Position numbers and translations under genes: made by a program
NCBI GenBank assembly: GCA_016795245.1
Contig: JAEUIA010000097.1
Span: 20,267 to 84,266, forward strand
From: Planctomycetota bacterium
GTDB lineage: Bacteria; Planctomycetota; UBA1135; GCA-002686595
DNA: 64,000 nucleotides
Direction: 5' to 3'
Part shown: in pieces, positions 36,876-56,067 of the stretch
Layout of the letters: every line of letters starts with the position of its first letter
How positions within the stretch are numbered: the stretch's first letter is position 1
Notes under the pieces: model-generated
What the model was told of the DNA's origin: nothing
The model's input: the letters and a program-made list of their open reading frames with translations, nothing else
The model's database searches: none

Positions 36876-37301
36876 TCACAGTTCGTCGGACCAGGCCTTC
36901 AGGAGCGCTACGTCCGCGGGCGAGAGTTTGGCCTCGGAGTGCAGCAGCACGTAGGCCTTGAGCGGCATCTCGCCGCTCTCGACTTCCTCGTACATCTCGA
37001 TCGCCTTCGAATCGCGCTTGGCCTTGGGCATGTCGCCCCAGATCGAGAGATTCAGGTGCTTGCGACCGTCTTCGACATCGTGGGCGACGAGCCACGACAC
37101 CGGCGCGATGTAGGAATACCAGGGCCAGTGCGTTTCGTTCGAATGGCAGTCGAAACATGCGCGCTTCAGGATGGCCTGGACCTCGGGCGGCGCCGCGATC
37201 GTCTGGCCCGGCGGAGGGTTGGTGCGGTCGACGGGGACGAATTGGATCGCGACGAGGACGACGGCGAGGACGATCGCCGTCCACTTGAGCACGCGTTTCA
37301 T
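36876..37301 (-). CDS. Haem-binding-domain protein (CxxCH, membrane-anchored)
   Basis: The ATG at 37301 gives MKRVLKWTAIVLAVVLVAIQFVPVDR, followed by ILKRACFDCHSNETHWPWYSYIAPVSWLVAHDVEDGRKHLNLSIW. This matches the 'haem-binding domain' family pattern as I recall it. Confidence 0.7.
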   Translation of the reverse strand: MKRVLKWTAIVLAVVLVAIQFVPVDRTNPPPGQTIAAPPEVQAILKRACFDCHSNETHWPWYSYIAPVSWLVAHDVEDGRKHLNLSIWGDMPKAKRDSKAIEMYEEVESGEMPLKAYVLLHSEAKLSPADVALLKAWSDEL

Positions 37302-37450
37302 GGTGGCGTGAGGGTACGGCAGAAGCGCCGGACTTTCAGCCGGCGTGCGCGAAATCAGCGGCAGCAGCTTGAGCTCTGCATTGCTTGGGGATTCGACGCT
37401 CGGCAAACTCGTCCGCTCTGCAATACTGGCTGCGGCAAACTTGCCGGCGC

Positions 37451-38857
37451 GTGAAGATCCTCATCCTGACACACGGCTTTCCGCCGCATCACACGGCCGG
37501 AACCGAGAGTTACGCCGCGGACCTGGGCGTCGCCCTCGCCGAGCGCGGGCACGAGGTGCGTGTCTTCACGGCGCACAAGGACATCAGCGTGCCCAACTAC
37601 CGCGTGACGCGGCGCGAGTGGCGCGGGCTCGTCGTGCACGAGATCCACAACAACCTGTTCCACCGTGAGTTCGAAGAGACCTACGCGAACACGCATGTGG
37701 AAGCGGCCTTCGAGGATGTGCTCGCCGAGTTCGAACCCGACGTGTTGCACGTGCAGCATCTGCTCTACTTGTCAGGCGGATGCATCGCCGCTGCCCGCGC
37801 GCGCGGCGCGGTCGTCGTCTTCACGTTGCACGATTTCTGGCTGGAGTGCCCGCGCTTCGGTCAGCGTGTGCACGCGGATGGCGGACTGTGCGACACGATC
37901 GATTTCAGGCGTTGCGGCACGTGCCTCCCGAGCTTCAAGTTCGGAAACACCGGACTCGTGCGCACGGTCGGCGGCATGATCGCCGGCATCAAGAGCGGCA
38001 CCGGCATCGACCTCGGGCCGATGGCGCGCTCGGCCGCGAAGAACTGGCGCGGACAGGCGACGGGTGATTCGGCCGACGCCGTGGACGACGAGACCGCACA
38101 GCGTTTCGAAGCGCTCGCCCGCGAGCGCACGCAACACCTCCAGCGTGCAGTCGTGCCCGAGGTGGACCTGTTCCTCTCGCCCAGCCGCTTCCTGCGTGAT
38201 CGATTCGTGCGCGAGTGGAACATTCCGCCCGCGCGCATCGAATACCTGCGATTCGGCATGGACGTACAAGCGCCGCCAAGGCGCGAGCGCGCGCTCGGCG
38301 GGCCGTTGCGCGTCGCGTTCCTGGGATCACTCGTGCCGCTCAAAGGGGCGCACATCTTGATCGAGGCGTGGAGCGGGCTGGCGGCGAGCGTGCGCGCGCG
38401 CGGTGAATTGAAGCTCTACGGTCCGGCGCGCCACCACCCCGAGTACCAGGACGCACTCGCGCGCGCGGCCGAAGCGTGCGGAGCGATCCTCGCCGGAAAG
38501 ATCGAGCGCGACGAAGTACTGTCCACGCTGGCGGAGACCGATCTGCTGGTCGTGCCTTCGCTGTGGTTCGAAAACGCGCCGCTCGTGATCCTCGAAGCGC
38601 TCGCGGCGCGCACGCCGCTCCTGGTTTCGAATCTGGGCGGGATGGCGGAACTGGTCGAGAGCGGCGTGAGCGGTTTCCATTTCGAGATGGGCAACGCGCA
38701 AGCACTGGCAACAACGTTGCAAGCAGCCCTCGAGGGCCGCCTGGGGCTGGAGCGACTGTACGCGCACCCGCCGGAGATCCCGACCTTCAGAGCACACGTC
38801 GACGTGATCGAAGCGCACTACGCCACTGCGCGCGCGCGCGGCAGGATGGGCGCATGA
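37451..38857 (+). CDS. Glycosyltransferase, GT4-like (GT-B fold)
   Basis: The GTG at 37451 gives VKILILTHGFPPHHTAGTESYAADLG. The C-terminal half (VVPSLWFENAPLVILEALAARTPLLVSNLGGMAELVESGVSGFHF) carries an E-x7-E-like region. Confidence 0.8.
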   Translation: MKILILTHGFPPHHTAGTESYAADLGVALAERGHEVRVFTAHKDISVPNYRVTRREWRGLVVHEIHNNLFHREFEETYANTHVEAAFEDVLAEFEPDVLHVQHLLYLSGGCIAAARARGAVVVFTLHDFWLECPRFGQRVHADGGLCDTIDFRRCGTCLPSFKFGNTGLVRTVGGMIAGIKSGTGIDLGPMARSAAKNWRGQATGDSADAVDDETAQRFEALARERTQHLQRAVVPEVDLFLSPSRFLRDRFVREWNIPPARIEYLRFGMDVQAPPRRERALGGPLRVAFLGSLVPLKGAHILIEAWSGLAASVRARGELKLYGPARHHPEYQDALARAAEACGAILAGKIERDEVLSTLAETDLLVVPSLWFENAPLVILEALAARTPLLVSNLGGMAELVESGVSGFHFEMGNAQALATTLQAALEGRLGLERLYAHPPEIPTFRAHVDVIEAHYATARARGRMGA

Positions 38858-40742: not shown

Positions 40743-41663
40743 TCAGGGACCCCACTGAACCATGACACCGTTCGTGGTGTTGAAGTTCTGAAGAATCGCC
40801 GTGCAGAACGCCGGGAACGTGCGGTACCAGCCCTGGTAGTAGTACGAGCCGGGCGTGACTCCGCCGCTGACGCTGATCGGGAGATCACCCGGCTCGGGCA
40901 GGCCGGCCTGACCGTTGCACGTGGCCTTGATCGCGAGACGCGTGATCGTGCCCGTGACGCACAAAAGTCCGTTGCCGAATTGGATGCCGGCACCGCCCGC
41001 CATCGGAGCCGTGCCTTGGAAGAACAACACGAACGTGCTCGCCGGCAGCCGCAGCGCGTGCAACACGAACCTGTCGTTGGAGATGCTCAGCGGCAGTCCG
41101 GGGATGCCATAGCCCACCAGGCGCCCGCCGATTCCCGGCGCGTGCAAGCAACCCTCGTTGTCACCCGCAGCACTGTTGTTCACGCACGGGCAAGCCGTGC
41201 CACTGCCGTCGCCGTAGCAGAACGTGGGTTGATTGGGGAACGTGTCGATCTGTCCGCGGATCTCTCCGCCGGGAAAGGCTGTCGAGTGGACGTTGAAGTA
41301 GCTGTTCCCCGCGAGCACCGCCGCTTGCTGCGCCAACGGGACCGCCCAGGCGCCGCACTTCAGCGCACCCAAAGCTTGCGCGTGCTGCACGCCGGAGTTC
41401 ACGCCCGGACCGGAGAACCCGTGGATGTGCGCGGCCGTCTCGCCTGCGCTCAAGTTCTGGTAGACCTCGCGGTACGTGAGCGTGCTCGTAGCGAGGTCGA
41501 ACGCGCAGAATCCGAGGCCGGTCGCCGGCGAGAGGTTCGCCGGCACCTCCTGCAGACCGTCGAGGCGCGCGAGCATGGGGATCGTTTGCGCCGAGACGAC
41601 GGGCGCGAACGGCGCTGCACAGAGCAGCAGGGCGAGAAGGGGACGCACGGATGCATGGAGCAT
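40743..41663 (-). CDS. Secreted CHRD-domain protein with a Cys-rich C-terminal module (paralogue 1)
   Basis: The ATG at 41663 gives the signal peptide MLHASVRPLLALLLCAAPFAPVVSAQ. CHRD hallmarks are LQEVP, AAHIHGFSGPGVNSGV and YFNVHSTAFPGGEIRGQI. The C-terminal module runs FCYGDGSGTACPCVNNSAAGDNEGC...YYQGWYRTFPAFC...NTTNGVMVQWGP. Confidence 0.85.
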   Translation of the reverse strand: MLHASVRPLLALLLCAAPFAPVVSAQTIPMLARLDGLQEVPANLSPATGLGFCAFDLATSTLTYREVYQNLSAGETAAHIHGFSGPGVNSGVQHAQALGALKCGAWAVPLAQQAAVLAGNSYFNVHSTAFPGGEIRGQIDTFPNQPTFCYGDGSGTACPCVNNSAAGDNEGCLHAPGIGGRLVGYGIPGLPLSISNDRFVLHALRLPASTFVLFFQGTAPMAGGAGIQFGNGLLCVTGTITRLAIKATCNGQAGLPEPGDLPISVSGGVTPGSYYYQGWYRTFPAFCTAILQNFNTTNGVMVQWGP

Positions 41664-41883
41664 GGGAGAAACTCGCGAGAGCAGGTGGCAGAGAGCGCGA
41701 CGAAATGTCGACTCACAGTGCGACTCGCGCGTGCATGGTAGATCTGCGCACGAAAAGCGGGGAGTGGGGCGGTTGGAATGCGGCGAGGCCGGCATACGTC
41801 ATGGGGACGTGGGCCGACCTCGCGGGGCGGGGGGGGGCGAAGGGCTGGGGGTCCCCGTGCGTCAGGGTTGTGGGGTGTTCCCC

Positions 41884-41981
41884 TCTACTACTGGATCCGG
41901 CAAATTTGCCGGATCTCTACTACTGGATCCGGCAAATTTGCCGGATCGTGGATCCGACAAATTGCCGGATTGGATTGCCGG
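41884..41981. repeat. Two perfect 32-bp tandem units plus a degenerate third, each containing a 22-bp palindrome
   Basis: 41884-41915 and 41916-41947 are identical: tctactactggatccggcaaatttgccggatc. The palindrome is GATCCGGCAAATTTGCCGGATC. The degenerate unit is gtggatccgacaaattgccggat, followed by tggattgccgg. The block ends 2 nt before the stop codon of CHRD paralogue 2. Confidence 0.9.
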
Positions 41982-41982
41982 G

Positions 41983-42909
41983 TCAGGGCACCCAGGTCAC
42001 AGCCACACCGTTGGTGAGATTGTCGAACGCCACCGCACCCGAGCAGAACGGCGGATTCACGCGGAACCAGGCCTGGTAGTAGTACGTGCCCGGCGCAACT
42101 GCGCCCGCGAAGCTGATCGTGGCATCGCCCGGTTCGGGCAGTCCGGCTTGGCCATTGCACGTCGCCTTGACGTTCAAGCGCGAGAGCGCACCGCTCACGC
42201 ACAAGAGTCCTCCGCCGAACGGAATTCCGTTGCCTCCGGCCATCGGCGCTGTGCCCTGGAAGAACAGGACGAAGGTGCTCGCCGGCAAGCGCAACGCGTG
42301 CAACACGAGATTGTCGTTGGCGATGCTCGGATTCGGCGCCGACGGCGGACCCGCGTAGCCGACCAGGCGACCGCCCATTCCCGGAGCATGGAGGCAACCC
42401 TCCATATCGCCGACTGCGCTGAAATTCGCGCACGGGCACGCGGCTGCGCTGCCGTCGCCGTAGCAGAAAGTCACTTGATCCGGCGCGAGGTTGATCTGTC
42501 CGCGGATCTCACCGCCGGGGAACGCGGTGCTGTGAACGTTGAAGTACGAGTTGCCCGGCAAAACCTGCAACGTTTGCGCGGCCGTCATGCCCCACACGCC
42601 GCACTTGAGCGTGCCCAAGGCCTGGGCGTGCAAAACGCCTGCGTTGAAACCCGGCGTCGCGAATCCGTGGATGTGCGCCGCGGTCTCGGCTGAACTCAGG
42701 TTCTGGTAGACCTCGCGATACGTGAGCGTGTTCGCGGCGACATCGATCGCGACGAAACCGAGGCCCGTCGCGGGCGTTGTGGTCGACGGAACTTCCTGCG
42801 CGCCATTCAAGCGCGCGAGCCGCGGAACCGTCTGCGCAGACGTGGTCTGCGTGAGCGACGCGGCACAGACGAGGAGCGTGAGAACGGAACGGACGGATGC
42901 ATGGACCAT
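41983..42909 (-). CDS. Secreted CHRD-domain protein with a Cys-rich C-terminal module (paralogue 2)
   Basis: The ATG at 42909 gives MVHASVRSVLTLLVCAASLTQTTSAQ. Motifs are AAHIHGFATPGFNAGV, YFNVHSTAFPGGEIRGQI and FCYGDGSAAACPCANFSAVGDMEGC...YYQAWFRVNPPFC...NLTNGVAVTWVP. Confidence 0.85.
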   Translation of the reverse strand: MVHASVRSVLTLLVCAASLTQTTSAQTVPRLARLNGAQEVPSTTTPATGLGFVAIDVAANTLTYREVYQNLSSAETAAHIHGFATPGFNAGVLHAQALGTLKCGVWGMTAAQTLQVLPGNSYFNVHSTAFPGGEIRGQINLAPDQVTFCYGDGSAAACPCANFSAVGDMEGCLHAPGMGGRLVGYAGPPSAPNPSIANDNLVLHALRLPASTFVLFFQGTAPMAGGNGIPFGGGLLCVSGALSRLNVKATCNGQAGLPEPGDATISFAGAVAPGTYYYQAWFRVNPPFCSGAVAFDNLTNGVAVTWVP

Positions 42910-43168
42910 GGGGGAAGGCCTCGCGGGCGCGGATTTCTGGAGTGCGACGATGTGTCGTCTCACAGCGCGACTACAGGCACATGGTAGTGCGAGGTGGTCT
43001 TCTTGGGGATGGAGGGTGGAAATGCAGCAAGGCCGACCGCGTCACGGGGAGGGACGGGCCGGCCTTGCGGGGGAGCGCCAGTTGGAGCAGCTGAGTCCGG
43101 AGGTCGTCCTTGCAAAGCTCGAGTCGGCCAGTCTGCCGCCTCGGCCTGGATCCCTCCACGCGGCCTGC

Positions 43169-44092
43169 TCAGGGCGCCCAGGTCACGCGCACCCCGTTGG
43201 TCAGGTTGTAGTTCGCGGGGACCGACGAGCAGAAGCCCGGAAAGGTGCGGAACCAGCCCTGGTACAGGAAAGTGCCCGGCGTCACCGCGCCGCTCACGCT
43301 GATCGGGAGATCGCCCGGCTCGGGGAGACCGGCCTGTCCGTTGCACGTCGCCTTGACGTTGAGGCGCGCGAGGTTGCCGGAGAGACACAAGAGGCCGTGG
43401 CCGAACTGCAGACCTGCACCTCCAGCCATCGGCACCGTGCCTTGGAAGAACAGCACGAACGTGTTCGACGGCAGACGCAGCGCGTGCAAGACGAGTCGGT
43501 CGTTGGAGATGCTCGGATTCGGCGCCGGACCGGCGTAGCCGACCAATCGACCTCCCACGCCAGGTGCGTGCAGGCAACCTTCGTTGTCACCGACCGCGCT
43601 GTTGTTGCCGCACGGGCAGGGCGTGCCGGTGCCGTCGCCGAAGCAGAACTCGGTTTGATCGGGTGCGAGGTCGATCTGTCCGCGGATCTCGCCGCCCGGG
43701 TTGCCTACTGTGTGGATGTTGAAGTAGGCCAGGCCGCCCATGACGTTGGCCAGTTGTACAGGCGTCAACGCCCACACACCGCACTTCGGTTGCCCGAGTG
43801 CTTGGGCGAGTTGGACTCCGGCGTTGACGCCGGCCGGGGCGAAGCCGTGGATGTGCGCCGCCGTCTCAGCCGAGCCCAAGGCCTGGAACACTTCGCGGTA
43901 CGCCATCGCACTCGCGAGCGTGTCGATCGCGACGAAGCCAAGCCCGTTTCCGAGCGTGACGACACCCGGGACTTCCTGCGCGCCGTCGAGTCGCGCGAGT
44001 CGCGGAAGCGTTGTCTGAGCCGGCGCGAACGTCGCGAGAGTCACGGCGCCGAGCAACGAATACAGCATGGAACGCAGCATGGAATGCATCAT
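43169..44092 (-). CDS. Secreted CHRD-domain protein with a Cys-rich C-terminal module (paralogue 3)
   Basis: The signal peptide is MMHSMLRSMLYSLLGAVTLATFAPAQ. Motifs are AAHIHGFAPAGVNAGV, YFNIHTVGNPGGEIRGQI and FCFGDGTGTPCPCGNNSAVGDNEGC...LYQGWFRTFPGFC...NLTNGVRVTWAP. Confidence 0.88.
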   Translation of the reverse strand: MMHSMLRSMLYSLLGAVTLATFAPAQTTLPRLARLDGAQEVPGVVTLGNGLGFVAIDTLASAMAYREVFQALGSAETAAHIHGFAPAGVNAGVQLAQALGQPKCGVWALTPVQLANVMGGLAYFNIHTVGNPGGEIRGQIDLAPDQTEFCFGDGTGTPCPCGNNSAVGDNEGCLHAPGVGGRLVGYAGPAPNPSISNDRLVLHALRLPSNTFVLFFQGTVPMAGGAGLQFGHGLLCLSGNLARLNVKATCNGQAGLPEPGDLPISVSGAVTPGTFLYQGWFRTFPGFCSSVPANYNLTNGVRVTWAP

Positions 44093-44339
44093 GGGAAATC
44101 TCCTCTTGCAGGGGCGCTCGCGGCAAACGCGCCGCGCTCCACCCCGCCAGCCGCTCGATGGTAGTCGAGACGCGGGCCGGCGGGGGCGAAGTTGCCAGGG
44201 GATTCAGCGACATCGCCCCCGGCGCGTGACGGGCAATCCCGCTTCCGGTCCGGATCTCGCACCACGTGTCGGTGAGGCGTCACCTGTACGAGCCTCGCCG
44301 CGTCCTCGCGTTCGACGTGCTCCCAGCGTCGCGTCGCCG

Positions 44340-45269
44340 TCAGGGCGCCCAGACGACGCGAATCGCGTTCGTGAGATTGAAGTTGCCCGGGATCGCGGCG
44401 CAGAAGCCCGGGTTCGTACGGAACCAGCCTTGGTAGAGGTAGGCCCCCGGCACGACACCGCCGCTGACGCTGATCGGGAGATCACCCGGCTCGGGCAGAC
44501 CGACCTGTCCATTGCAGGTGGCCTTGATGTTGAGGCGCGTGATGTTGCCCGTCAGACACAAGAGTCCGCTGCCGAATTGAATTCCATTGCCGCCGTTCAT
44601 CGGCACCGTCCCTTGGAAGAACAGGACGAAGGTGCTGGCCGGCAGACGCAAGGCGTGCAACACGAAGTTGTCGTTCGAGATGCTCGGAGTCGGAGCCAGC
44701 GGCGGCCCGGCGTAGCCGACGAGTCGGCCGCCCATGCCCGGCGCGTGCAAGCAACCCTCGTTGTCACCCACCGCGCTGTTGTTGCCGCACGGGCACGGCG
44801 TACCGCTGCCGTCGCCGAAGCAGAACTCGCCCTGGTCAGGCCGCAGATCGATCTGTCCGCGGATCTCACCGCCGGGGTTCGTCGTCGTGTGGATGTTGAA
44901 GTACGCGAAGCCGCCGATCACGTTCGACTGCTGCACCGGTGTCATCGCCCACACGCCGCACTTCGGTTGCCCGAGCGCTTGGGCGTGCACCACTCCCGCG
45001 TTCACGCCGGCCGGCGCGAAACCGTGAATGTGGGCGGCCGTCTCGATACCCGTCAGGTTCTGGAAGAGCTCGCGGTAGGTGAGCGTATTGGTCAGCGTGT
45101 CGACCGCGACGAAGCCGAGGCCGCTCCCCGGAGTCAGGACGATCGGGACCTCTTGCGCACCACTGAGGCGCGCGAGCAACGGAACGGTGGTCTGGGCCGG
45201 CGCGGCGGTCGCGAGTGTCACGAGGCCGAGCAGCGCGAACAGGCCGGAACGCAGAGTGGGTTGAGTCAT
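44340..45269 (-). CDS. Secreted CHRD-domain protein with a Cys-rich C-terminal module (paralogue 4)
   Basis: The signal peptide is MTQPTLRSGLFALLGLVTLATAAPAQ. Motifs are AAHIHGFAPAGVNAGV, YFNIHTTTNPGGEIRGQI and FCFGDGSGTPCPCGNNSAVGDNEGC...LYQGWFRTNPGFC...NLTNAIRVVWAP. Confidence 0.88.
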   Translation of the reverse strand: MTQPTLRSGLFALLGLVTLATAAPAQTTVPLLARLSGAQEVPIVLTPGSGLGFVAVDTLTNTLTYRELFQNLTGIETAAHIHGFAPAGVNAGVVHAQALGQPKCGVWAMTPVQQSNVIGGFAYFNIHTTTNPGGEIRGQIDLRPDQGEFCFGDGSGTPCPCGNNSAVGDNEGCLHAPGMGGRLVGYAGPPLAPTPSISNDNFVLHALRLPASTFVLFFQGTVPMNGGNGIQFGSGLLCLTGNITRLNIKATCNGQVGLPEPGDLPISVSGGVVPGAYLYQGWFRTNPGFCAAIPGNFNLTNAIRVVWAP

Positions 45270-45573
45270 GGGAAGTCTCCTTGGGCCAGGGCGCTCGCGG
45301 CACCATCGCCGCGCTTCACCCCTAAAGCCCTTCGAGGGTAGTCGAGTTCAGGCACCGCTGGGGCAGAAGTTGCCCCATGTTTCAGCGCCCGCGACGCCGC
45401 TCAGCTGCGCGAATGCATGATCCTAGCGGCGCCCGGGGATTGCGTCCGGACTCCCGCGCGCGAGCGATCGAAGAGGGGCCTCTGCGGATTCGCGCGGACA
45501 GGAGCGTTGAACTGCGGCGCACGCACAGGCATACCAGTGGGCCAGTCCGAGCCCAGGCTCGCGCCCAACCAGC

Positions 45574-46599: not shown

Positions 46600-47064
46600 G
46601 TGTTCTACGGTGAGTCCTCCCACGCGCTCGACGGCAAGTTTCGAGTGACCGTCCCCAAGCGGTTCCAGGACGAGTTCGCGCGCGACGCGAGCGGGACCCT
46701 GGTCTGCTTTCTCACACGCGGACAGGATCGTTGTCTCTACCTGTTCTCCGAGTCGGGCTTCGAGCGCGCTCTCCAAGGTCTCGACATCGCCGCATTCAAC
46801 GGGGAGAACCAACGCGCCGCGCAGCGCGTGTTCTTCGCCAACACCGCGCGCATCGAACTCGATGCGCAAGGTCGCGTACTGGTGCCCGAGAAGCTTCGAG
46901 CGCATCTCGGGACGGACAAGGATGTCGTGATCGTAGGGGTCGGTGATCACGCCGAGATGTGGGCCAAAGACGTGTGGGAACGCTACCACGCGCAACACGA
47001 GCCCATCCTCGATTCAGTCGACCAGGTGCTCGGTAATCGCGGGAGGACCGCGCCGAACTCTTGA
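46600..47064 (+). CDS. mraZ: Transcriptional regulator MraZ
   Basis: GTG start. (M)FYGESSHALDGKFRVTVPKRFQDEF... and the second half-domain ELDAQGRVLVPEKLRAHLG show the duplicated SpoVT/AbrB-like MraZ layout. It is first gene of the dcw cluster. Confidence 0.9.
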   Translation: MFYGESSHALDGKFRVTVPKRFQDEFARDASGTLVCFLTRGQDRCLYLFSESGFERALQGLDIAAFNGENQRAAQRVFFANTARIELDAQGRVLVPEKLRAHLGTDKDVVIVGVGDHAEMWAKDVWERYHAQHEPILDSVDQVLGNRGRTAPNS

Positions 47065-47084
47065 ACAGGGGGCCGTGGGGGGAG

Positions 47085-48077
47085 ATGTTCGGGACGGAGT
47101 TTGAGTCCATGGATGCCGAGACCGCCGAGAGGGGCGACGGGTCGGTGCACATCCCTGTGCTGTCCGCGCAAGTCGCGGCGGCGTTTGGGTGCATTCCCGA
47201 GCGCGCGCGCACAAGCTACGTCGTCGATGCGACGGTGGGCCTGGGCGGACACACGGAGTTGCTGCTCGCAACGTATCCGTGGCTGAACATCCTGGGTGTC
47301 GATCAGGATCCCGAAGCACTCGAGCGTGCTCGCACACGTCTCGAACGCTTCGGCTCGCGCGTGCGCTTGTGCCGCGGCCGTTTTTCGGAACTCGCGCGCG
47401 TGATGCGCCAGCAACAGATCGGCATGCCGATCGGCATGTTGTTCGACATCGGCGTGTCGTCGATGCAACTCGATGTGGCCGAGCGCGGCTTCAGTTTCCA
47501 ACACGACGGTCCGCTCGACATGCGCATGGATCCGTCGCGCGATCGGCCTGCATCCGACATCGTCAACCAGTGGGACGAGAGCGATCTGGCCGACTTGTTC
47601 TTCCACGAAGGCGGCGAGAAGCAGTCGCGCAAGATCGCGCGCGCGCTCGTCGAAGCCCGCGCTCGCGCACCTTTCATGCGCACGGCGCCGTTGGCCGACC
47701 TCGTCGCGCGTGCCCTGGGCGGCGGCGGTGGACGCATCCACCCTGCGACGCGCGTGTTCCAGGCCTTGCGCCGCGCCGTCAACGAAGAGGGCGAGGAACT
47801 CCTGGCCGCGCTGCACACCGCCGACCACTGCCTCGCCGACGGCGGAGTGTTGGCCGTGATCTCGTTCCACTCGGGCGAGGACGGCGAAGTGAAGCGCTTC
47901 TTGAACGCCGCCGCGCGCGACGGACGCTTCAAGCTCACGCCGCGCAAGCCGCTCGAAGCCGATCAAGCCGAATGCCGCGCGAACCCGCGTGCGCGCTCGG
48001 CCAAGTTGCGCGTCGCCGAACGCGTGCGTTCCGAAGTGCGCGGCGAGACGGAGATCGAAGGAGGGGAGTGCGAATGA
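47085..48077 (+). CDS. rsmH: 16S rRNA (cytosine1402-N4)-methyltransferase RsmH/MraW
   Basis: Motifs are HIPVL, VDATVGLGGHTELLL, GVDQDPEAL, FDIGVSSMQLD..RGFSF..DGPLDMRMD and ISFHSGEDG. The start is uncertain: TTG at 47061, ATG at 47085 or ATG at 47109. Confidence 0.9.
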   Translation: MFGTEFESMDAETAERGDGSVHIPVLSAQVAAAFGCIPERARTSYVVDATVGLGGHTELLLATYPWLNILGVDQDPEALERARTRLERFGSRVRLCRGRFSELARVMRQQQIGMPIGMLFDIGVSSMQLDVAERGFSFQHDGPLDMRMDPSRDRPASDIVNQWDESDLADLFFHEGGEKQSRKIARALVEARARAPFMRTAPLADLVARALGGGGGRIHPATRVFQALRRAVNEEGEELLAALHTADHCLADGGVLAVISFHSGEDGEVKRFLNAAARDGRFKLTPRKPLEADQAECRANPRARSAKLRVAERVRSEVRGETEIEGGECE

Positions 48078-48307
48078 CACGCCTCGTCCTGTGTTCGTTG
48101 CTCGGTGGATTGACGCTCGTGGTCGGTCTCGTGACCGCGATCGTGCAGTCGCACAACCGCGATCTGGGAATGCGCCTCGCCGACCTGCGCGAAGAAACGA
48201 CGCTCGTCGAAGCCGTCAACGGCGCGTCGGCCGCGCGCGTCCTGCGCATCGATCACGGCCCGCTGGACCTCGAGAGCATCGAGCCTGAAAAGAGGGTCTC
48301 GCGGTGA
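48074..48307 (+). CDS. Small single-TM protein in the FtsL position
   Basis: The ATG at 48074 overlaps the rsmH TGA (ATGA). MTRLVLCSLLGGLTLVVGLVTAIVQSHNRDLGMRLADLREE... is a TM followed by a short coiled segment, 77 aa in total. The call rests on position and topology only. Confidence 0.6.
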   Translation: MTRLVLCSLLGGLTLVVGLVTAIVQSHNRDLGMRLADLREETTLVEAVNGASAARVLRIDHGPLDLESIEPEKRVSR

Positions 48308-50772
48308 GCGAATTCGACAGCCCCCCCGCTGTGACGCCGGCACCCGCCGCAGCCGAAGCGCAATTCCGGTCCGCTTCCGGCTTGCGTCCGGCGAGTGCCT
48401 TCGTGCTCATCGGGTTCGTACTCGCGCTCGTCGCTGTGCGCGCCGCGATCCTGTCGCTGTACGACGAGGGCGATCAACCGCGCAACTTGACGCGTCTGCC
48501 GATCTTGCCCGTCGGCTTCGACATCGTCGACGCGGCCGGCGTGCCGATGGCGCGCTCCGTCGACTACCTCGAACTCGTCGCATCACCCAACGCCTTGTGG
48601 CAGGCGCACACACCGGACTGGATGGCGCGCCGCCTCGCCGCAGCCCTCGGGCGCCCGGAATCCGCGGACCAGTTGATCGAGGATCTCTTGCCCGACGCCG
48701 AGAACGGCGTGATCACGGCGCGCATCGATCGCGAGACTCCGCTCGTGCTCGACGAAGCCCAGAAGGATCGCGTCGTGTCGTGGCTGGTGCGCGGCACCAC
48801 CGATCCAGACGAGATTCGCGCGCCGATCCAGGGGTTCAGGCTCGTGCGCACGGCTCAGCCCGGCCGCTACCACCTGGCTTGGATACCGCGCACGGTTCTG
48901 TCCGAGAGCGAGCGCGAGCGCCACGGATACAAGAAGCCGCTCGAGTGGACGCGGCGCATCACGGACGACCTCTCCGCTTGTCTGCTCGGGGATGCGATCC
49001 GCGAAGTCGACAACGACGAGGCGCGCACCAAGCTGCGCTCGCGCGTTTGGAAAGTGCTGATGCCGACGCAATTCAAGAGCGTCGTGAAGGAAGTGCCCGT
49101 CGAGTTCGCCGGCACGATCCACGCCTTGCTCAAGTTCGAGCGCGTGCAATCGCACCAGATGGAGATCCGCCGCAATCAGAAGCGCGCGTATCCGGTGAAG
49201 GGCGATGTGCGCACCGCTCATCCCGCAGTCGGCGTCCTGGGCCGCTGGGGGACGTTGGAGCCCGCAGCGGCGCGCAAACTCGCGATCCGCGAACTGCGCT
49301 TGCCCGAAGACGACGCGCTGTGGAGTTCGTCGCAGATCGAGGCCTTCAATGCGCGTTCACGCGCGTGCGTGTTCCAGCCCAGCCCGATGAGCGGGCTCGA
49401 ACTCCACGCCAAGAATCTGCTGGCCCAGCCCGAGTGGCAGGACTGGCTGCGTTTGCGCGGAGAGGAGTACACCTACTTCGCCAATCAGGTGCCGCGTCAG
49501 CCGATGCACCACTACTTCCAGGAGTTGATCGAGGCGGACGAGACTCCGCGCGTCATCACCACGATCGAGATGGGGTTGCAGCGCTCGATGCGCGTGCTGC
49601 TCGAGCGCGCGATGAAGGACAACGACCCGGCCGTCGCAATGGCGATCGCGATCGACGTGCAAACGGGCGACGTGCTCGCGGTCGACGCGATCGACGCCTA
49701 CGGCATGGGAGGATTCTTGCCCACGCTGCACACCTACACGCCCGGCTCGACCATGAAGGCCGTGATCATGGCCGCGGCGCTCGAAGAAGGCGTCGTGACG
49801 CCGGACGAGCAGATCAACGCCTACCACGACACGTTCGTGTTCGAGGGTCGGCGCATCCACGAAGCCGACGGCGCCAAGGACAAGGACATCGTCACGGCGG
49901 CGGAAGCGCTGGCGTATTCGATCAATGCCGTGATGGTGCAGATCGGCACGCGCATGACCGATGCCGTGTTGCGCGGGCACTTGATCGCACTCGGCTACGC
50001 CCAGTATCCCGACGCGGGTTTGGGCAGCGAGCGCTGCGGAACGCTCCTGCGCTTGCCGTGGTCGCGCAAACACACGCAAGCGTCGTTGTCTTTCGGTCAC
50101 GAGATGCACGTGACGCTGTGGCAGCACGTGGCCGCGATGGCCACGCTCGTACGCGGGGGGCACTACCGGCCGCTGCGCATCGTCAAGGCCGTCGAGCAGT
50201 ACGGCGTCACCAAACCGATTCCGCTCGTCGAGAACCACAAGTTGCAGGCGCACGACTCGCTGTCGCAGCGCACGTCCGATCAGATCCGCGCGATGATGGA
50301 ACTCGGCGCGCGCATCGGCACGGGCAAGCGCGCCTACAGACCCGACATGGTCATCGGGACGAAGACCGGCACTGCGCAGCGCGTCGGTACGGAGCTGTGC
50401 CTGCACGTCGAACTCGAGCACAACAAGCAGCACGATTGCCACGGTGCACGCGCCTGTCGCGCGGCTCTCGTGGGCAAGAAGGCGCACAAGGGCTACTGCT
50501 ACACGTCTTCGATGTGCATCTTCGGCCGTCGGCTCGAAGGCGGGCGCGAAGTGATGGTGTACGTCGTCGTCGACGAGCCGCGCGGCCGCTTTCACTTCGG
50601 TTCGGAAGTCGCCGGCCCAGTCGCTGTCGGCGTGCTGCGCGAGGCGCTCGGCTTCACGAACCTGCTCGAAGACGTCGAACAACCCGATGCGAGCGGCTTC
50701 CGCACTGTGAACGTGGCGGCATCCGGTGCGTCGGACCAGCCGTGGTCGGAGGTACTCCATGCGGCGCGTTGA
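48304..50772 (+). CDS. ftsI: Class B penicillin-binding protein (FtsI/PBP3-like transpeptidase) with an extended N-terminal region
   Basis: The GTG at 48304 overlaps the upstream stop. The catalytic motifs are STMK (PGSTMKAV), SIN (YSINAV) and KTG (KTGTAQ). It is 822 aa. Confidence 0.85.
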   Translation: MSEFDSPPAVTPAPAAAEAQFRSASGLRPASAFVLIGFVLALVAVRAAILSLYDEGDQPRNLTRLPILPVGFDIVDAAGVPMARSVDYLELVASPNALWQAHTPDWMARRLAAALGRPESADQLIEDLLPDAENGVITARIDRETPLVLDEAQKDRVVSWLVRGTTDPDEIRAPIQGFRLVRTAQPGRYHLAWIPRTVLSESERERHGYKKPLEWTRRITDDLSACLLGDAIREVDNDEARTKLRSRVWKVLMPTQFKSVVKEVPVEFAGTIHALLKFERVQSHQMEIRRNQKRAYPVKGDVRTAHPAVGVLGRWGTLEPAAARKLAIRELRLPEDDALWSSSQIEAFNARSRACVFQPSPMSGLELHAKNLLAQPEWQDWLRLRGEEYTYFANQVPRQPMHHYFQELIEADETPRVITTIEMGLQRSMRVLLERAMKDNDPAVAMAIAIDVQTGDVLAVDAIDAYGMGGFLPTLHTYTPGSTMKAVIMAAALEEGVVTPDEQINAYHDTFVFEGRRIHEADGAKDKDIVTAAEALAYSINAVMVQIGTRMTDAVLRGHLIALGYAQYPDAGLGSERCGTLLRLPWSRKHTQASLSFGHEMHVTLWQHVAAMATLVRGGHYRPLRIVKAVEQYGVTKPIPLVENHKLQAHDSLSQRTSDQIRAMMELGARIGTGKRAYRPDMVIGTKTGTAQRVGTELCLHVELEHNKQHDCHGARACRAALVGKKAHKGYCYTSSMCIFGRRLEGGREVMVYVVVDEPRGRFHFGSEVAGPVAVGVLREALGFTNLLEDVEQPDASGFRTVNVAASGASDQPWSEVLHAAR

Positions 50773-52249
50773 ACTGATCGATCTCGTGGTTCGGTTGGGG
50801 GGGTCCCTTGCACCTGTGGGAGGTGCGGGACCGAGGATCACCGGTGTCCACTTGGACAGCCGTCGGGTGGGCGCCGGTGATCTCTTTGCCGCCGTGAGCG
50901 GATCCGTCGAAGACTCGGAACACTACTCGGTCGAAGCCGTGCGCCGCGGAGCCTCGGCCGTGCTCGCGCGCCGCGCGTTCGCGTCGACCGTGCCGGTGTG
51001 GGTCGTCTCGGAAGCGCGCCGCAGTGCCGGACTGGCGGCGGCGCTCGTCTACGGCGAGCCGGCGCAGTCGATGTTCAAGGTCGGCATCACCGGCACGAAC
51101 GGCAAGACGACGACCGCGCACCTCGTCGGACAGTTGCTCACCTGCGCAGGCTTCAAGCCGGCCGTGCTCGGCACCGCGGGTCATCGCCTGGCCGACGGTC
51201 TGCGACGCGCGGCCACGCACACGACACCGGACGCGCCTGAAGTGCAGCGCCTGCTCGTGCAGCACAAGGAATTCGGCGGCAACGCGCTCGCCATGGAAGT
51301 CTCGTCGCACGCGATCGCGCAGGAGCGTCATGCGGGCATCGACTTCGACGTCGCGGTGTTCACGAACCTGACCCGCGATCACCTGGACTATCACAAGGAC
51401 TTCGAGACGTACCTGCAGACGAAGGCTCGTCTGTTCGCCGGCCTGACGCCGCGCGGTACCGCAGTCCTGAATGCCGATGATCCCGCTTGTCCGCGCATGG
51501 CGGAAGCGGCGACGCGTGCCGGAGCACGCGTCATCAAGTACAGCGCCCGGAGTGCCGGTGACCTGTGTGCTTCCGACGTCCGTACCGACTTGAGCGGCAC
51601 CGACTTCGTTCTCAATGGGATGGGGATCTCGAGAACGAAGATTCGTGTGCCTCTCACCGGTCGTTACAACGTCGAGAACGCGCTGGCTGCCGCGGCCGCG
51701 GTGCTCGTGACGGGGGCGAGTCCTTCCACAATCGTGGATGGGCTCGCCACCGCCTCTGCCGCTCCGGGGCGGCTGGAGCCCGTCGCGACCAACGAGCGCG
51801 GATTCACGCTGCTCGTCGACTACGCGCACAGTGAAGACGCGCTCTCGAACGTGTGTCGCGTCCTGCGCGAGTCGCTGGAAGCGCGCGCCGCGAGCGCGGG
51901 ACGTCTGATCGTCGTGTTCGGTTGCGGCGGCGACCGCGACAAGGGCAAGCGCGCTCCGATGGGGCGCGTCGTGCAGCAACTCGCCGATCTCGCGATCGTG
52001 ACCAGCGACAACCCGCGCAGCGAAGATCCCGCCGGGATCATCGCCGAGATCGTGGCCGGCATGGATCAAGGCGGTGCCGAGCGCATCGTCGAGATCGACC
52101 GCCGCCGCGCGATCGAAACAGCCGTGTCGCGCGCGCGCGTCGGCGACATCGTGCTCATCGCCGGCAAGGGGCACGAAAACACTCAGACCATCGGCTCTCA
52201 AGTACTCGAATTCGACGACCGTCTGGTCGCCGCGGAGGCTTTGCGATGA
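50759..52249 (+). CDS. murE: UDP-N-acetylmuramoyl-L-alanyl-D-glutamate--2,6-diaminopimelate ligase
   Basis: Motifs are GITGTNGKTTTAHLV and DNPRSEDP. The ATG at 50759 (MRRVELIDL...) overlaps the ftsI 3' end. Confidence 0.9.
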   Translation: MRRVELIDLVVRLGGSLAPVGGAGPRITGVHLDSRRVGAGDLFAAVSGSVEDSEHYSVEAVRRGASAVLARRAFASTVPVWVVSEARRSAGLAAALVYGEPAQSMFKVGITGTNGKTTTAHLVGQLLTCAGFKPAVLGTAGHRLADGLRRAATHTTPDAPEVQRLLVQHKEFGGNALAMEVSSHAIAQERHAGIDFDVAVFTNLTRDHLDYHKDFETYLQTKARLFAGLTPRGTAVLNADDPACPRMAEAATRAGARVIKYSARSAGDLCASDVRTDLSGTDFVLNGMGISRTKIRVPLTGRYNVENALAAAAAVLVTGASPSTIVDGLATASAAPGRLEPVATNERGFTLLVDYAHSEDALSNVCRVLRESLEARAASAGRLIVVFGCGGDRDKGKRAPMGRVVQQLADLAIVTSDNPRSEDPAGIIAEIVAGMDQGGAERIVEIDRRRAIETAVSRARVGDIVLIAGKGHENTQTIGSQVLEFDDRLVAAEALR

Positions 52250-53655
52250 ACGCATTTCGAATCCAGGACGTGATCGAGGCGACCGGCGCGAAACTCATGC
52301 GCGGCAACGCCTCGCGCCTCGTGCACGGCGTGAACACCGACACGCGTTCGATCGCGAGCGGGGAGTTCTTCTTCGCGCTGTCCGGCCTGAATTTCGACGG
52401 CAACCGCTTTGCGCGTGAGGCCATCGACCGGGGTGCCGCGGGAGTGATGCTTGCGAGCGCGGACGGCGCACCCCCGCCCGCGATCAGCGAGCTCCCCCGC
52501 GACACGCCGATCCTCCTGCATCCCTCGCCGCGTGCGGCGCTCGCCGAACTCGCGGTCTGGTATCGCCGCCGTCTGTCGGCGCGCGTCGTCGGCATCACCG
52601 GTTCGTGCGGCAAGACGACGACCAAGAACATCCTGATCGAACTGTTCGCCGCGCGCTGGCGCACGGTCGGCAGTCCGAATTCGTTCAACAACGACATCGG
52701 CGTGCCGTTGACGCTCTTGATGGCCGACGACGAGACCGAAGCGCTGGTCGTCGAGATCGGAACCAATCACCCCGGCGAGATCGCGAATCTCTGCCGCATC
52801 GCGCGTCCCGACGCGGGCATCATCACCACGATCGGCGCCTCGCACCTCGAAGGTCTGGGGTCGATCGCCGGCGTCGCCAAGGAAAAATCGGCGCTGGCCG
52901 CGTCGATCCCCGAGGACGGATTCTGCGTGCTCAACGCCGACAGCACCTGGACCGACTGGATCCGCAAGGAAACGCGCGCCGAAGTCATCACCTTCAGCAT
53001 CGACGGTGCCGGTGATTTGAATGCGACCGACGTGTGGTTCCATTCGGGAGGAACGACCTTCCGTCTGGACGGACGCGAAGTCACTTCGCCGCTGCTCGGC
53101 TTGCACAACGTGCAAAACCTGCTGGCCGCGCTCTCGGCCTGTCGCGGGCTCGGGCTGTCGCTCGATGACGTGCTGCCGTCCGTCTCGCGCCTGCGCGCCG
53201 GACGCGGTCGCCTCGACCGCATCCAATGCGGGCGCTTCACCTTGATCGACGACAGCTACAACGCCAATCCGGAATCAGCGCGCGCCAGCGTGCGCGTCTT
53301 GAGCGGATTGCACGGACACCGCCGACGCGTGCTCGTGCTCGGTGACATGCTCGAACTCGGCGAACACGCCGGCGAAATGCACTTTCAGATCGGCGCCGAG
53401 GCTGCGAAGAGCGGGCTCGATCTGCTGGTGCTCGTCGGCAGCTTGACCCGGGCCGCCGCCGCCGGTGCCTTGGAGGGCGGACTGCCGCCGGAGCGCGTCG
53501 TTCACGTCGAGGACACCGACGAAGCGCTGCAACTCGTCCCGCCGTTGATCGAGTCGGGCGACGTCGTTTTGGTCAAGGGCAGTCGCGCGACGGGCCTCGA
53601 TCGCCTCGTGAAACACCTGGTCGACCGCGAAAGCAGTCGAGAACACGCCGCCTGA
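52246..53655 (+). CDS. murF: UDP-N-acetylmuramoyl-tripeptide--D-alanyl-D-alanine ligase
   Basis: The ATG at 52246 overlaps the murE TGA (ATGA). Motifs are VNTDTRSIASGEFFFAL and GITGSCGKTTTKNIL. Confidence 0.9.
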   Translation: MNAFRIQDVIEATGAKLMRGNASRLVHGVNTDTRSIASGEFFFALSGLNFDGNRFAREAIDRGAAGVMLASADGAPPPAISELPRDTPILLHPSPRAALAELAVWYRRRLSARVVGITGSCGKTTTKNILIELFAARWRTVGSPNSFNNDIGVPLTLLMADDETEALVVEIGTNHPGEIANLCRIARPDAGIITTIGASHLEGLGSIAGVAKEKSALAASIPEDGFCVLNADSTWTDWIRKETRAEVITFSIDGAGDLNATDVWFHSGGTTFRLDGREVTSPLLGLHNVQNLLAALSACRGLGLSLDDVLPSVSRLRAGRGRLDRIQCGRFTLIDDSYNANPESARASVRVLSGLHGHRRRVLVLGDMLELGEHAGEMHFQIGAEAAKSGLDLLVLVGSLTRAAAAGALEGGLPPERVVHVEDTDEALQLVPPLIESGDVVLVKGSRATGLDRLVKHLVDRESSREHAA

Positions 53656-54800
53656 TGTTCCCGGGCATCTTCGACGACATCCTGCGCATCCAGCTGTTCG
53701 GATACATCTCGTTCCGAGTGGCCATGGCCGCGTTGACTGCGTTCGCCTTCGCGATCCTCATGGGCAGGCCCGTGATCGCATGGTTGCGCGCGCACAAGGT
53801 CAGCGAGGGGATCAAGGGTGATTCGGCCGATCTCGATGCCTTGACGCAGAAGAGCGAGAAGAAGAGCACGCCGACCATGGGCGGCAGCTTCCTCGTGTTG
53901 TCCCTGATCGGGTCCGTGCTGTTGTGGGGGCGGCTAGACAACATCCACGTCGTGCTGGCGGTGTTGCTCACCGCCGGACTCGCCGCGGTCGGCTTCGTCG
54001 ACGATTTCAAGAAGCTCACCGTGCTGAAGAGCAAGGGCCTCAAGCCGCGCGCCAAGATGATCGGTCTCACGGCCGCGACCTTGTTCGCCCTGGGGTGCTT
54101 CGCCTACTACGCATCGACCTCCGGTCGCGCCACGCTGCTCGATCTGTTCCCGCCGTTCTTCAAAGACGTGCGCATTTCGCTGGCAGCACTCGGACTCGTG
54201 GGGGTGATGATCTTCATCGTCTTCCAGTGGTTCGTCGTGGTCGGAACTTCGAACGCGTGCAACATCACCGACGGACTCGACGGACTCGCGGCCGGCTGCA
54301 TGATCATCTCGGGGCTGACGCTCTCGATCTTCTGCTACGTCACGGGCCGCGCCGACTGGACCGGGTACCTGGGTCTGCCGCATGTCGCGGCCGCTTCCGA
54401 AATGGCGGTCGTGGGCGGCGCCTTGTGCGGCGCGTGCATGGGATTCCTCTGGTACAACGCCTACCCGGCGCGCGTCTTCATGGGCGACTCGGGCTCGCTG
54501 CCGCTGGGCGGCTTGCTGGCCTGGATGGCGCTCGTCGCCAAACAAGAACTCGTATTGCCGCTGATCGGCTTCGTGTTCTTCGCCGAACTCGCGTCGAGCT
54601 TCATCCAGACGCAGTACTACAAGCGCTCGGGCGGTAAACGCATCTTCACCATGGCGCCCATTCACCATGGGTTGCAGGTGAAGGGCGGCATTTTCAAGCC
54701 GGGTGAAAAGCCCTGGCATGAAATGCAGATCGTCGTCCGTGCGTGGATCATCGCGGCTGCTTGCGCCATGGCGAGCCTGTCCCTCTTGAAGGTGCGGTAG
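53655..54800 (+). CDS. mraY: Phospho-N-acetylmuramoyl-pentapeptide transferase
   Basis: The ATG shares 1 nt with the murF TGA. Motifs are KSTPTMGG, NACNITDGLDGLAAG and MGDSGSLPLGG. Confidence 0.92.
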   Translation: MFPGIFDDILRIQLFGYISFRVAMAALTAFAFAILMGRPVIAWLRAHKVSEGIKGDSADLDALTQKSEKKSTPTMGGSFLVLSLIGSVLLWGRLDNIHVVLAVLLTAGLAAVGFVDDFKKLTVLKSKGLKPRAKMIGLTAATLFALGCFAYYASTSGRATLLDLFPPFFKDVRISLAALGLVGVMIFIVFQWFVVVGTSNACNITDGLDGLAAGCMIISGLTLSIFCYVTGRADWTGYLGLPHVAAASEMAVVGGALCGACMGFLWYNAYPARVFMGDSGSLPLGGLLAWMALVAKQELVLPLIGFVFFAELASSFIQTQYYKRSGGKRIFTMAPIHHGLQVKGGIFKPGEKPWHEMQIVVRAWIIAAACAMASLSLLKVR

Positions 54801-56018
54801 ATGTCACGGTTCAAGCGAGGTCCGGCGCTCCCCGAAGGAGTCGTGCTACCGAAGGAGCGGCAACTGTCGCTGCTCGAACGCCTCGATTCGCTGACCCAGC
54901 GCGTCGAGACGATCGATCCGCGCGAGCCCGCGATGTCGCTCTTCTGGTGCGTGCTCGGCCTGATGGGTATCGGCCTGATCCTGCAGGTCAACCATGCCGC
55001 GACGACGCAACCGCCGGACGTGTTCTGGGCCGGACTATGGAGTCAGCTCGGTTTCCGCTGCGCCGCCGTGATGGCGCTGCTCGCGGGTATCCGCATCGGG
55101 CCGCAACGGCTGCGGCGCTACATCCCGGCGCTGACCGTGATCACGCTGATCACACTCATCCTGGTCTACGTCCCGGGCTTCGCCGCATCGAAGAACGGCG
55201 CAAGACGGTGGGTGTCCTTCCCGTTCACAGGCTTCTCGTTCCAACCCTCCGAACTCGCGCGCATCGTGATGATCCTGTGGGTCGCCGACCGCTGCATCCG
55301 GCTGGAGAAGAACGTCGAAGATTGGAAGCGCGGCGTGTGGCCCATGCTGCGACTGGGTCTGGTGTTTTTCGCGCTGATCCTGTGCGAAACGGACCTGGGC
55401 GGGGCGTTGCTCTTCCTGTCGTGCTTCCTGGCCACGATGTGGGTCGGCGGCGCTCGTCCGATCCACGTCTACGGTCCGCTGTTCAGCGTGGGCGGTGTCG
55501 CGTTCCTGGTGGTGATCACGTTCGTCGGCTACATCCGCCAACGCATCGAGATGTGGCTCGGCAGTGCCGTCAACGATCAAGTGCAGCGCTCGAGCGAAGC
55601 CATCGCCAGCGGCGACTGGACGGGCGTCGGGCTAGGCCACGGCTTGTTCCGCAATGCGCGCGTGCCTTATCTCGAATCGGACTACGTGTTCGCGCTGACC
55701 GGCGAGGAACTCGGGCTGCTCGGCATGCTGCTCGTCCTCGGCTTGTTCCTCGCGTTCCTGTGGTTCGCGCTGCGCTACGTCCTCTCGATCCGTGATCGCT
55801 ACGACGCCTTGTGCGCCTTCGGACTGTTGCTCTCCGTCGGTCTGCAAGCCATGGTGCACGTGCAAGTCGTCACGGGTCTCGCTCCGCCCAAGGGCATGCC
55901 TCTGCCGTTCTTGAGTCACGGCGGCACGTCTCTCGTCGTTTCCTCGCTCGCGGTCGGTCTGGCTCTGGGCGCTGCCCGGGCGATCAAACCGGCCGAGTCC
56001 AACAAGATCGAATCCTGA
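54801..56018 (+). CDS. ftsW: SEDS-family peptidoglycan glycosyltransferase (FtsW/RodA type)
   Basis: The ATG immediately follows the mraY TAG. Motifs are FQPSELARIVMILWVA and GLAPPKGMPLPFLSHGGTSLV. Confidence 0.88.
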   Translation: MSRFKRGPALPEGVVLPKERQLSLLERLDSLTQRVETIDPREPAMSLFWCVLGLMGIGLILQVNHAATTQPPDVFWAGLWSQLGFRCAAVMALLAGIRIGPQRLRRYIPALTVITLITLILVYVPGFAASKNGARRWVSFPFTGFSFQPSELARIVMILWVADRCIRLEKNVEDWKRGVWPMLRLGLVFFALILCETDLGGALLFLSCFLATMWVGGARPIHVYGPLFSVGGVAFLVVITFVGYIRQRIEMWLGSAVNDQVQRSSEAIASGDWTGVGLGHGLFRNARVPYLESDYVFALTGEELGLLGMLLVLGLFLAFLWFALRYVLSIRDRYDALCAFGLLLSVGLQAMVHVQVVTGLAPPKGMPLPFLSHGGTSLVVSSLAVGLALGAARAIKPAESNKIES

Positions 56019-56067
56019 ATCTCATTCAACCTTCTGTTTCCAACAGTCATCCAACTCCGCACTTCCG

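Follow-up and report, generated by a model that had tools for sequence, protein, structure and literature searches.

The four tandem genes g1–g4, at positions 40743–45269 of a 64,000-nucleotide stretch of Planctomycetota DNA (GenBank assembly GCA_016795245.1, contig JAEUIA010000097.1, positions 20,267–84,266; here called the window), each encode a predicted secreted protein in which a single CHRD domain is followed by a C-terminal module. This module represents an undescribed, very large and strictly C-terminal domain family that bears the genomic signature typical of sorting or anchor domains; in genomes of the Saltatorellus clade (OM190/UBA1135), it is found on hundreds of secreted proteins that are otherwise unrelated. 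We consider it to be a lineage-specific surface-targeting or anchor domain with a probability of about 0.5; the CHRD barrels that it carries in the window would then be displayed on the cell surface, possibly as metal-binding proteins. The array itself is ordinary, well-preserved tandem paralogy in a clade where such runs are common.

Four CHRD-module precursors

All four genes lie on the minus strand, with start-to-start distances of 1246, 1183 and 1177 bp in the open reading frame (ORF) listing. Their starts at 41663, 42909, 44092 and 45269 are exactly those claimed in an earlier reading of the DNA made without database searches (the sequence-only reading). Although the ORF of g1 is extendable to 41795, its start was placed at the ATG at 41663 because only this ATG aligns with those of g2–g4 and yields a signal peptide. 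The genes and their domains are:

40743–41663, minus strand: g1, 306-aa precursor, predicted signal peptide aa 1–25
41247–41570, minus strand: g1 CHRD domain, aa 32–139 (Pfam match)
40746–41222, minus strand: g1 C-terminal module, aa 148–306 (profile match)
41983–42909, minus strand: g2, 308-aa precursor
42493–42816, minus strand: g2 CHRD domain, aa 32–139 (Pfam match)
41986–42468, minus strand: g2 C-terminal module, aa 148–308 (profile match)
43169–44092, minus strand: g3, 307-aa precursor
43673–43996, minus strand: g3 CHRD domain, aa 33–140 (Pfam match)
43172–43648, minus strand: g3 C-terminal module, aa 149–307 (profile match)
44340–45269, minus strand: g4, 309-aa precursor, for which AlphaFold2 (AF2) models were built
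44850–45173, minus strand: g4 CHRD domain, aa 33–140 (Pfam match)
44343–44825, minus strand: g4 C-terminal module, aa 149–309 (profile match)

The g2–g4 proteins are 65–70% identical to g1, and an exact look-up in public assemblies returned no protein identical to g4. A basic residue, a hydrophobic core and an A-x-A↓Q cleavage-type motif can be read at each N-terminus, which reads as a Sec signal peptide. The CHRD motifs quoted in the sequence-only reading were found in the alignment of the four proteins, as were those given for the module, with the correction that g2 has GDGSA instead of GDG(S/T)G. A module profile searched against the six-frame translation of the window matched exactly these four copies (E 1e-68 to 4e-72), the next match having an E-value of ~1.

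A strictly C-terminal family on unrelated cargo

The module has no sequence match in Pfam, NCBIfam or the PDB (window genes; for Pfam and NCBIfam also 95 other family members), so the earlier statement that it could not be named stands. Searches of the PDB with g4 and with a four-sequence profile gave noise-level immunoglobulin matches only (E>=0.09). A word-index search with the g4 module returned 15 relatives, whose N-terminal domain is CHRD, plastocyanin or LamG, or is lacking. The exhaustive profile search, over 1.84 billion representatives clustered at 50% identity, matched 10,514 clusters at E<=1e-3, a number that is a lower bound, 7,080 at E<=1e-10 and 2,467 at E<=1e-30.

In a set of 264 family proteins, there is one module per protein, and complete modules end zero or one residue from the C-terminus in 262 of 263 cases. 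The preceding cargo ranges from about 20 to more than 1,100 residues; a crude rule finds a signal-peptide-like N-terminus in 124 of the 171 cargos that start with Met. This cargo is diverse. It includes propellers (FG-GAP/VCBS, Rax2, SBBP, Kelch and PD40), TSP3 repeats, Ig domains, C-type lectin, cupredoxin, LamG and CHRD domains, and enzymes such as trypsin-like and S9 peptidases, esterases and endonuclease I; glycoside hydrolases occur only occasionally (for example, Glyco_hydro_42 in protein P0021). Pfam families match 85 family members, none of them over the module itself, and in about half of the cargos Pfam recognizes no domain. In every source, the proteins carry ‘hypothetical’ or cargo-derived names, and ten family-member clusters are all called ‘hypothetical protein [Planctomycetota bacterium]’.

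When one genome for each GTDB species was scanned with a nine-sequence module alignment, these species representatives gave at least 566 stretches that encode the module; among the matches listed, 80 of 80 lie in Planctomycetota metagenome-assembled genomes (MAGs), with many per MAG. In the related loci examined, 117 of 715 gene calls encode the module, and one MAG holds at least 14 module genes within about 110 kb of its sequence. Tandem runs of module genes also occur elsewhere, with about nine consecutive genes in locus L029, five or six in L033 and, in L069, three paralogues of ~1,515 aa plus a fourth gene cut by the end of the locus. Because such runs are common in the family, the g1–g4 array is the less unusual part of the locus.

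An extreme C-terminal position, a single copy per protein, signal-peptide-like N-termini on varied cargo and many copies per genome are generic marks of sorting or anchoring domains, and the module has all of them. Under the surface-targeting reading, the Sec signal peptide would carry each g1–g4 precursor across the cytoplasmic membrane, the precursor would fold with disulfides after export, and the module would then target its cargo to the cell surface or hold it there, acting as a shared address or retention tag. It might be recognized by a common export or attachment machinery, as is the C-terminal domain (CTD) of the type IX secretion system (T9SS), or it might bind a common component of the envelope, as SLH or dockerin domains do. 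The four genes would in this way supply four diverged, surface-displayed CHRD barrels that vary mainly in the CHRD loops and have their own upstream regions. A more far-reaching version, which we hold only tentatively and at well short of even odds, is that the module is the tag of an undescribed export or attachment pathway of the Saltatorellus lineage, which would serve thousands of cargo families and be functionally equivalent to the T9SS CTD or exosortase systems, and that the CHRD domains are copper-binding, superoxide dismutase (SOD)-like enzymes at the surface of wall-flexible cells that lack FtsZ.

Like cargo with different C-terminal tags

The nearest CHRD proteins outside the module family are single-domain proteins of 135–207 aa. 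When the last 40 residues of 120 of these were read, about 21 tails were PEP-CTERM-like and about 21 had another transmembrane-plus-basic form. About 25 of the 120 (among P0265–P0372) share a conserved ending, E.(S/T)TWG.IK.LY(R), which has no Pfam or NCBIfam match and looks like another unnamed C-terminal tag. The remaining homologues stop directly after the domain.

That like cargo bears different C-terminal tags in other lineages is the strongest argument that the module fills the niche of a sorting or anchor tag. Single-CHRD proteins of other bacterial phyla that bear a PEP-CTERM (exosortase-type) or similar tag, such as P0350, P0340 and P0384, share with g1–g4 a signal peptide, one CHRD domain and an element at the extreme C-terminus; their CHRD part is 34–55% identical to that of g4, with H-x-H...H and GGEIRGQ invariant, and P0350 scores above the cut-offs of both Pfam PEP-CTERM and TIGR02595. 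The cargo of the module likewise includes a TSP3 protein resembling MtsC, which is itself a MYXO-CTERM protein, and a GBD_T9SS_assoc protein.

The module is not, however, a member of these known systems. The tag of those single-CHRD proteins consists of a motif of about 25 aa, a transmembrane helix and a basic tail, whereas the module is globular, has 160 aa and contains six Cys. It ends in ...V.W.P without a hydrophobic helix and has no PF07589 or TIGR02595 match, so its assignment as a PEP-CTERM or MYXO-CTERM tag was rejected. The T9SS CTD of Bacteroidota (TIGR04183/PF18962) is a parallel in being a folded beta-sandwich at the extreme C-terminus that accompanies a Sec signal on unrelated cargos numbering from dozens to hundreds in a genome, and the cargos overlap (propellers, Ig domains, lectins, proteases and GBD_T9SS_assoc). 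By contrast, the CTD is about half as long as the module, which has its six conserved Cys, and this assignment was rejected too: no Pfam or NCBIfam match was found in the window genes and 95 members, and no CTD is among the top 50 structural (Foldseek) matches. We know of no T9SS described in Planctomycetota.

LPXTG, PEP-CTERM, the T9SS CTD and MYXO-CTERM each led to dedicated machinery and defined a phylum's surface proteome. The module shares the genomic signature of those sorting tags, marks at least 10,000 protein clusters and is absent from the copies of Pfam and NCBIfam that were searched. If the surface-targeting reading is true, the module defines the surface and secreted proteome of its clade computationally and gives a handle on the machinery via phylogenetic profiling. 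A literature search returned no relevant account of a planctomycete C-terminal sorting domain.

Module conservation and fold

Across 385 modules, the six Cys (profile positions 6, 15, 17, 29, 88 and 141) are about 98–100% conserved, and D9, N19, D50, Q69, D84, R87, R95, Y130, Q131, W133, R135, N147, N150 and W156 are near-invariant. As these Cys, polar and aromatic residues are conserved on unrelated cargo, one common partner is indicated.

Such conservation would also suit the single partner interface of a dockerin-like domain, plugging its cargos into a scaffold or a proteinaceous surface layer or matrix rather than acting as a secretion signal or an anchor to glycans. Like the dockerin/cohesin and SLH modules, the module is terminal, single-copy and common to many extracellular proteins of one organism, and its occurrence on varied cargo, dozens per genome, is that of cellulosomal dockerins. 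Nevertheless, we think this explanation distinctly improbable: the Pfam search gave no homology to any of these modules and no dockerin or EF-hand match, no cohesin-like family recurs beside module genes in 80 loci, and the module, with its many disulfide-type Cys, is twice as large as a dockerin.

In the AF2 model, the module is an all-beta sandwich preceded by an irregular N-terminal stretch rich in Cys (predicted local distance difference test score (pLDDT) 82; predicted template modelling score (pTM) 0.82). Foldseek comparison of this model with the PDB gave nothing at E<=1e-3 (best E>=6e-3; query-based TM-score (TMq) <=0.42), and, for want of a significant match, the idea that the module belongs to a known fold family to which a role has been assigned was dropped. 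The weak neighbours below these limits are generic or sugar-related sandwiches: 6pal (an accessory domain of glycoside hydrolase family 158), 2r5o (O-antigen-binding Wzt), 8wae (a porphyran carbohydrate-binding module (CBM)) and lytic polysaccharide monooxygenase/X325 folds.

These neighbours raise an alternative that we regard as unlikely, albeit as one to be taken seriously, namely that the module is a lectin- or CBM-type domain for an external substrate (polysaccharide, prey or particle) and that g1–g4 are substrate-binding or scavenging proteins. Glycan sites typically contain residues such as the Tyr, Trp, Gln, Asn, Asp and Arg that the module conserves, stand-alone proteins consisting of a signal peptide and the module exist, and human chordin CHRD domains bind glycosaminoglycans (PMC13382577). 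However, no structural match is significant, and no CBM Pfam match was found on the module in the window genes or family members. CBMs are commonly internal, N-terminal or repeated, whereas the module is strictly terminal and single-copy, and its cargo comprises mostly propellers, adhesin-like repeats and proteins of unknown type rather than glycoside hydrolases.

Several observations weigh against a surface-targeting or anchor domain, in addition to its lack of detectable similarity to known sorting domains in Pfam, NCBIfam and Foldseek searches. The signal peptide plus module-only proteins (for example, P0011, with a cluster of 20) are unexpected and therefore count against a pure export signal. 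Neighbour enrichment over 80 loci revealed no export, processing or receptor component, only housekeeping synteny; the recurrent neighbours, as read from sequence, look like housekeeping genes (sulfatase, NadA, serine hydroxymethyltransferase, deoxyhypusine synthase and others of this kind), together with one antisense ORF artefact. With its 160 aa, folded core and conserved polar residues, the module might just as well serve to bind a ligand. Finally, in the subclade of the window (g1–g4, L001, L002, L008, P0001 and P0002), FGxGLLC replaces the FGDGLRC of the family, and because two near-invariant residues are thus replaced, the window modules may behave differently from most of the family. 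Both residues are retained in the next CHRD-module clade.

The CHRD domain

To our knowledge, no biochemical function is known for bacterial CHRD domains, a question that is 20 years old. The assignment of the domain made in the sequence-only reading was borne out by the Pfam search: CHRD (PF07452) matches aa ~32–140 of all four proteins at 68.3–79.4 bits (E 1e-18 to 5e-22), above the gathering cut-off of 24.1 bits, with matches spanning profile positions 3–117 of 117. The CHRD part of the full-length AF2 model has a pLDDT of 97–98 and matches Cu,Zn SODs with a Foldseek probability of 0.99–1.0 and a target-based TM-score (TMt) of 0.59–0.66, so the model places the domain among SOD-like Greek-key beta-barrels. 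Such a barrel is also seen in the published structure of chordin CHRD domains (PMC13382577), although this entry (9RD6) was not among the Foldseek matches of the model.

All 120 CHRD homologues compared have H80, H82, H127, E135 and R137. Together, the H-x-H...H triad, the Glu and the Arg (in GGEIRGQ) suggest a metal site of the Cu or Zn type or a small-ligand site, and, with the recurrence of CHRD domains as cargo of surface-sorting tags, they offer a lead on bacterial CHRD function. In a reading of motifs rather than an alignment, the H-x-H of one strand, the lone His on a later strand and the G-x-R close to the last strand recall the Cu ligands H46, H48 and H120 and the Arg143 of Cu,Zn SOD. 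By contrast with the latter, only three His are invariant, and the bridging His and the ligands of the Zn site are not conserved; as g1–g4 also have no Sod_Cu match in Pfam at E<=1, membership of the Cu,Zn SOD family was rejected. The equivalence of the triad to Cu ligands is put forward conditionally because hhalign of the family against human SOD1 gave no alignment (probability 0.1), a result that weighs against the metal-binding part of our reading, as does the fact that chordin CHRDs, which share the fold, do without the SOD metal ligands (PMC13382577). A metal site is thus suggested by motif and fold.

The barrel and the module may be physically tied. Of 18 CHRD-module proteins, 17 have both C104, which lies in the CHRD domain, and C252, which lies in the module; the 18th has neither, and position 104 is Cys in none of 36 CHRD-only homologues. 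Because this co-occurrence is specific to the fusion, an interdomain disulfide is suggested, and the C104–C252 pair appears to join the barrel to the module; against this, the interdomain geometry is confident in just one of five AF2 models.

Among characterized relatives, chordin has four tandem domains (CHRD1–4; 9RD6, PMC13382577) that bind glycosaminoglycans and lack the SOD ligands, whereas each protein here has one CHRD domain with a His triad, fused to a new module. Bacillus cereus ExsM and a spore-surface protein of Brevibacillus laterosporus, both CHRD family members, are located on the outermost spore layers (PMC5335551), an extracellular or surface location such as that predicted for g1–g4.

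Age and history of the array

Pairwise nucleotide identity among g1–g4 is 72–78%, and the pairwise rate of synonymous substitution (dS) is 0.70–1.09, with a nonsynonymous-to-synonymous ratio (dN/dS) of 0.17–0.36 in both domains. Because of these values, g1–g4 are old duplicates under purifying selection: all four copies are individually maintained paralogues. Mean pairwise identity is 0.75 in the module versus 0.67 in the CHRD domain. In the four-copy comparison, the variable segments are 41–51, 56–65, 68–75 and 107–122 in the CHRD domain and 188–195 and 288–300 in the module.

The signal-peptide leaders pair as the sequence-only reading had described, g1 with g2 (58% identity) and g3 with g4 (67%), versus 31–38% across pairs. 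Its deduction of two rounds of duplication holds only in part. In a neighbour-joining tree of the array genes and relatives from other assemblies, g3 is sister to g4, but g1 and g2 do not form a clean pair: g1 groups with a truncated gene of L001 that adjoins a HEAT gene, and g2 groups with L002 and P0001 (83–88% identity), the L008/P0002 type being sister to the g2 group. As the nearest relatives of g1 and g2 are therefore L001 and L002/P0001, respectively, most of the duplications are older than speciation, and the topology of the wider clade would require at least three duplications plus a translocation or loss.

We give next to no credence to the possibility that the array is a recent dosage amplification of one gene, or an assembly artefact, without functional differentiation. 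In its favour are the regular 1.18–1.25-kb spacing and identical gene structure, and the fact that related MAG assemblies break within the locus, L001 and L002 lying at contig ends. However, the dosage expansion that had been suggested is at odds with the dS values and with the placement of the closest relatives of g1 and g2 in other genomes rather than in the array, and the signal peptides and 5′ leaders have diverged as well. Copies that are merely 72–78% identical at the nucleotide level make a repeat-collapse or repeat-expansion artefact implausible; moreover, both flanks are syntenic in independent assemblies, and an uninterrupted 66.7-kb metagenome contig of a relative (L081) has other content in the same slot.

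Upstream regions and intergenic elements

Each copy keeps its own upstream region, as had been noted from the sequence alone: the motif CTACC(A/C)T precedes each of the four ATGs by 65–71 nt, and by their 5′ leaders g1 pairs with g2 and g3 with g4.

41735–41741, minus strand: CTACCAT motif, 71 nt upstream of the g1 ATG
42981–42987, minus strand: CTACCAT-type motif of g2, conserved upstream position
44158–44164, minus strand: CTACCAT-type motif of g3, conserved upstream position
45335–45341, minus strand: CTACCCT motif of g4, conserved upstream position

The motif could be a −10 element or a regulatory site. A −35 element to go with it is not apparent, and a scan of the array with a generic sigma-70 consensus returned no full promoter; a scan with a terminator consensus gave a single terminator-like site, positioned inside g2.

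Directly after the g2 stop codon lies a palindrome tandem:

41894–41947, strand unassigned: palindrome GATCCGGCAAATTTGCCGGATC, 22 nt, two perfect copies in a 32-bp tandem
About 41951–41969: degenerate third copy, just 5′ of the perfect copies on the coding (minus) strand

The tandem forms an AT-rich island within DNA of 67% GC, and the RNA fold of the region has a z-score of −8.8. The palindrome is unique within the window and was not found in 80 related loci. It is possibly a terminator or insulator hairpin between g2 and g1, a repetitive extragenic palindromic (REP)-like element, an operator or another protein-binding site.

Locus synteny and lineage

The genes flanking the array include:

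36876–37460, minus strand: Haem_bd (PF14376) protein gene (counterpart in L001, 3967–4422)
45574–46149, plus strand: 191-aa CxxC protein, between the array and mraZ
46600–60873: division and cell wall (dcw) cluster, mraZ-rsmH-ftsI-murE-murF-mraY-ftsW, a LysM protein (56068–57048), murG, one ORF (left out of the domain scan) and murB

The left flank, consisting of the Haem_bd protein, two family 4 glycosyltransferases (GT4) and a HEAT-repeat lipoprotein-like gene, is conserved in three assemblies. In L001, the order HaemBd-GT4-GT4-HEAT is followed by a CHRD gene that the contig end truncates; in L008, a CHRD gene follows FtsI-RsmH-MraZ-hyp. L081 spans both sides, with FtsI-RsmH-MraZ-hyp, one CHRD-module gene, a gene for an 834-aa module protein whose cargo domains are GBD_T9SS_assoc and PPC, and then HEAT-GT4-GT4-HaemBd. 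As the slot thus holds four CHRD genes in the window versus one CHRD gene and one unrelated module gene in L081, its copy number varies. The 191-aa CxxC protein, which has no Pfam match, has counterparts of 68% identity at the equivalent place in L008 and L081.

The lineage can be suggested from the window itself. Its GC content of ~67% and a dcw cluster that runs from mraZ to murB without ftsQ, ftsA or ftsZ after murB in the window (the next genes are MacB/ABC genes on the other strand) fit the Saltatorellus clade, to which the window probably belongs. OM190/UBA1135 corresponds to this clade, which has ~70% GC and lacks FtsZ (bioRxiv 10.1101/817700; PMC11032199), its cells being shape-shifting, fragile and FtsZ-less, a cell-envelope biology that has been called unusual (bioRxiv 10.1101/817700). 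One module-bearing MAG, JADJNY, is classified as GTDB c__UBA1135/SILVA OM190 (PMC8012365 supplement). Housekeeping genes of the window are 65–85% identical to those of L001 and L008.

In L002 (1989–3347; MAG MP7G1.130), a g2-type gene is followed by ORFs for a putative IS91-like transposase fragment and an extracytoplasmic function (ECF) sigma factor, both assigned by reading of the translations. Because these ORFs replace the array neighbours there, this g2-type gene was perhaps moved by a mobile element.

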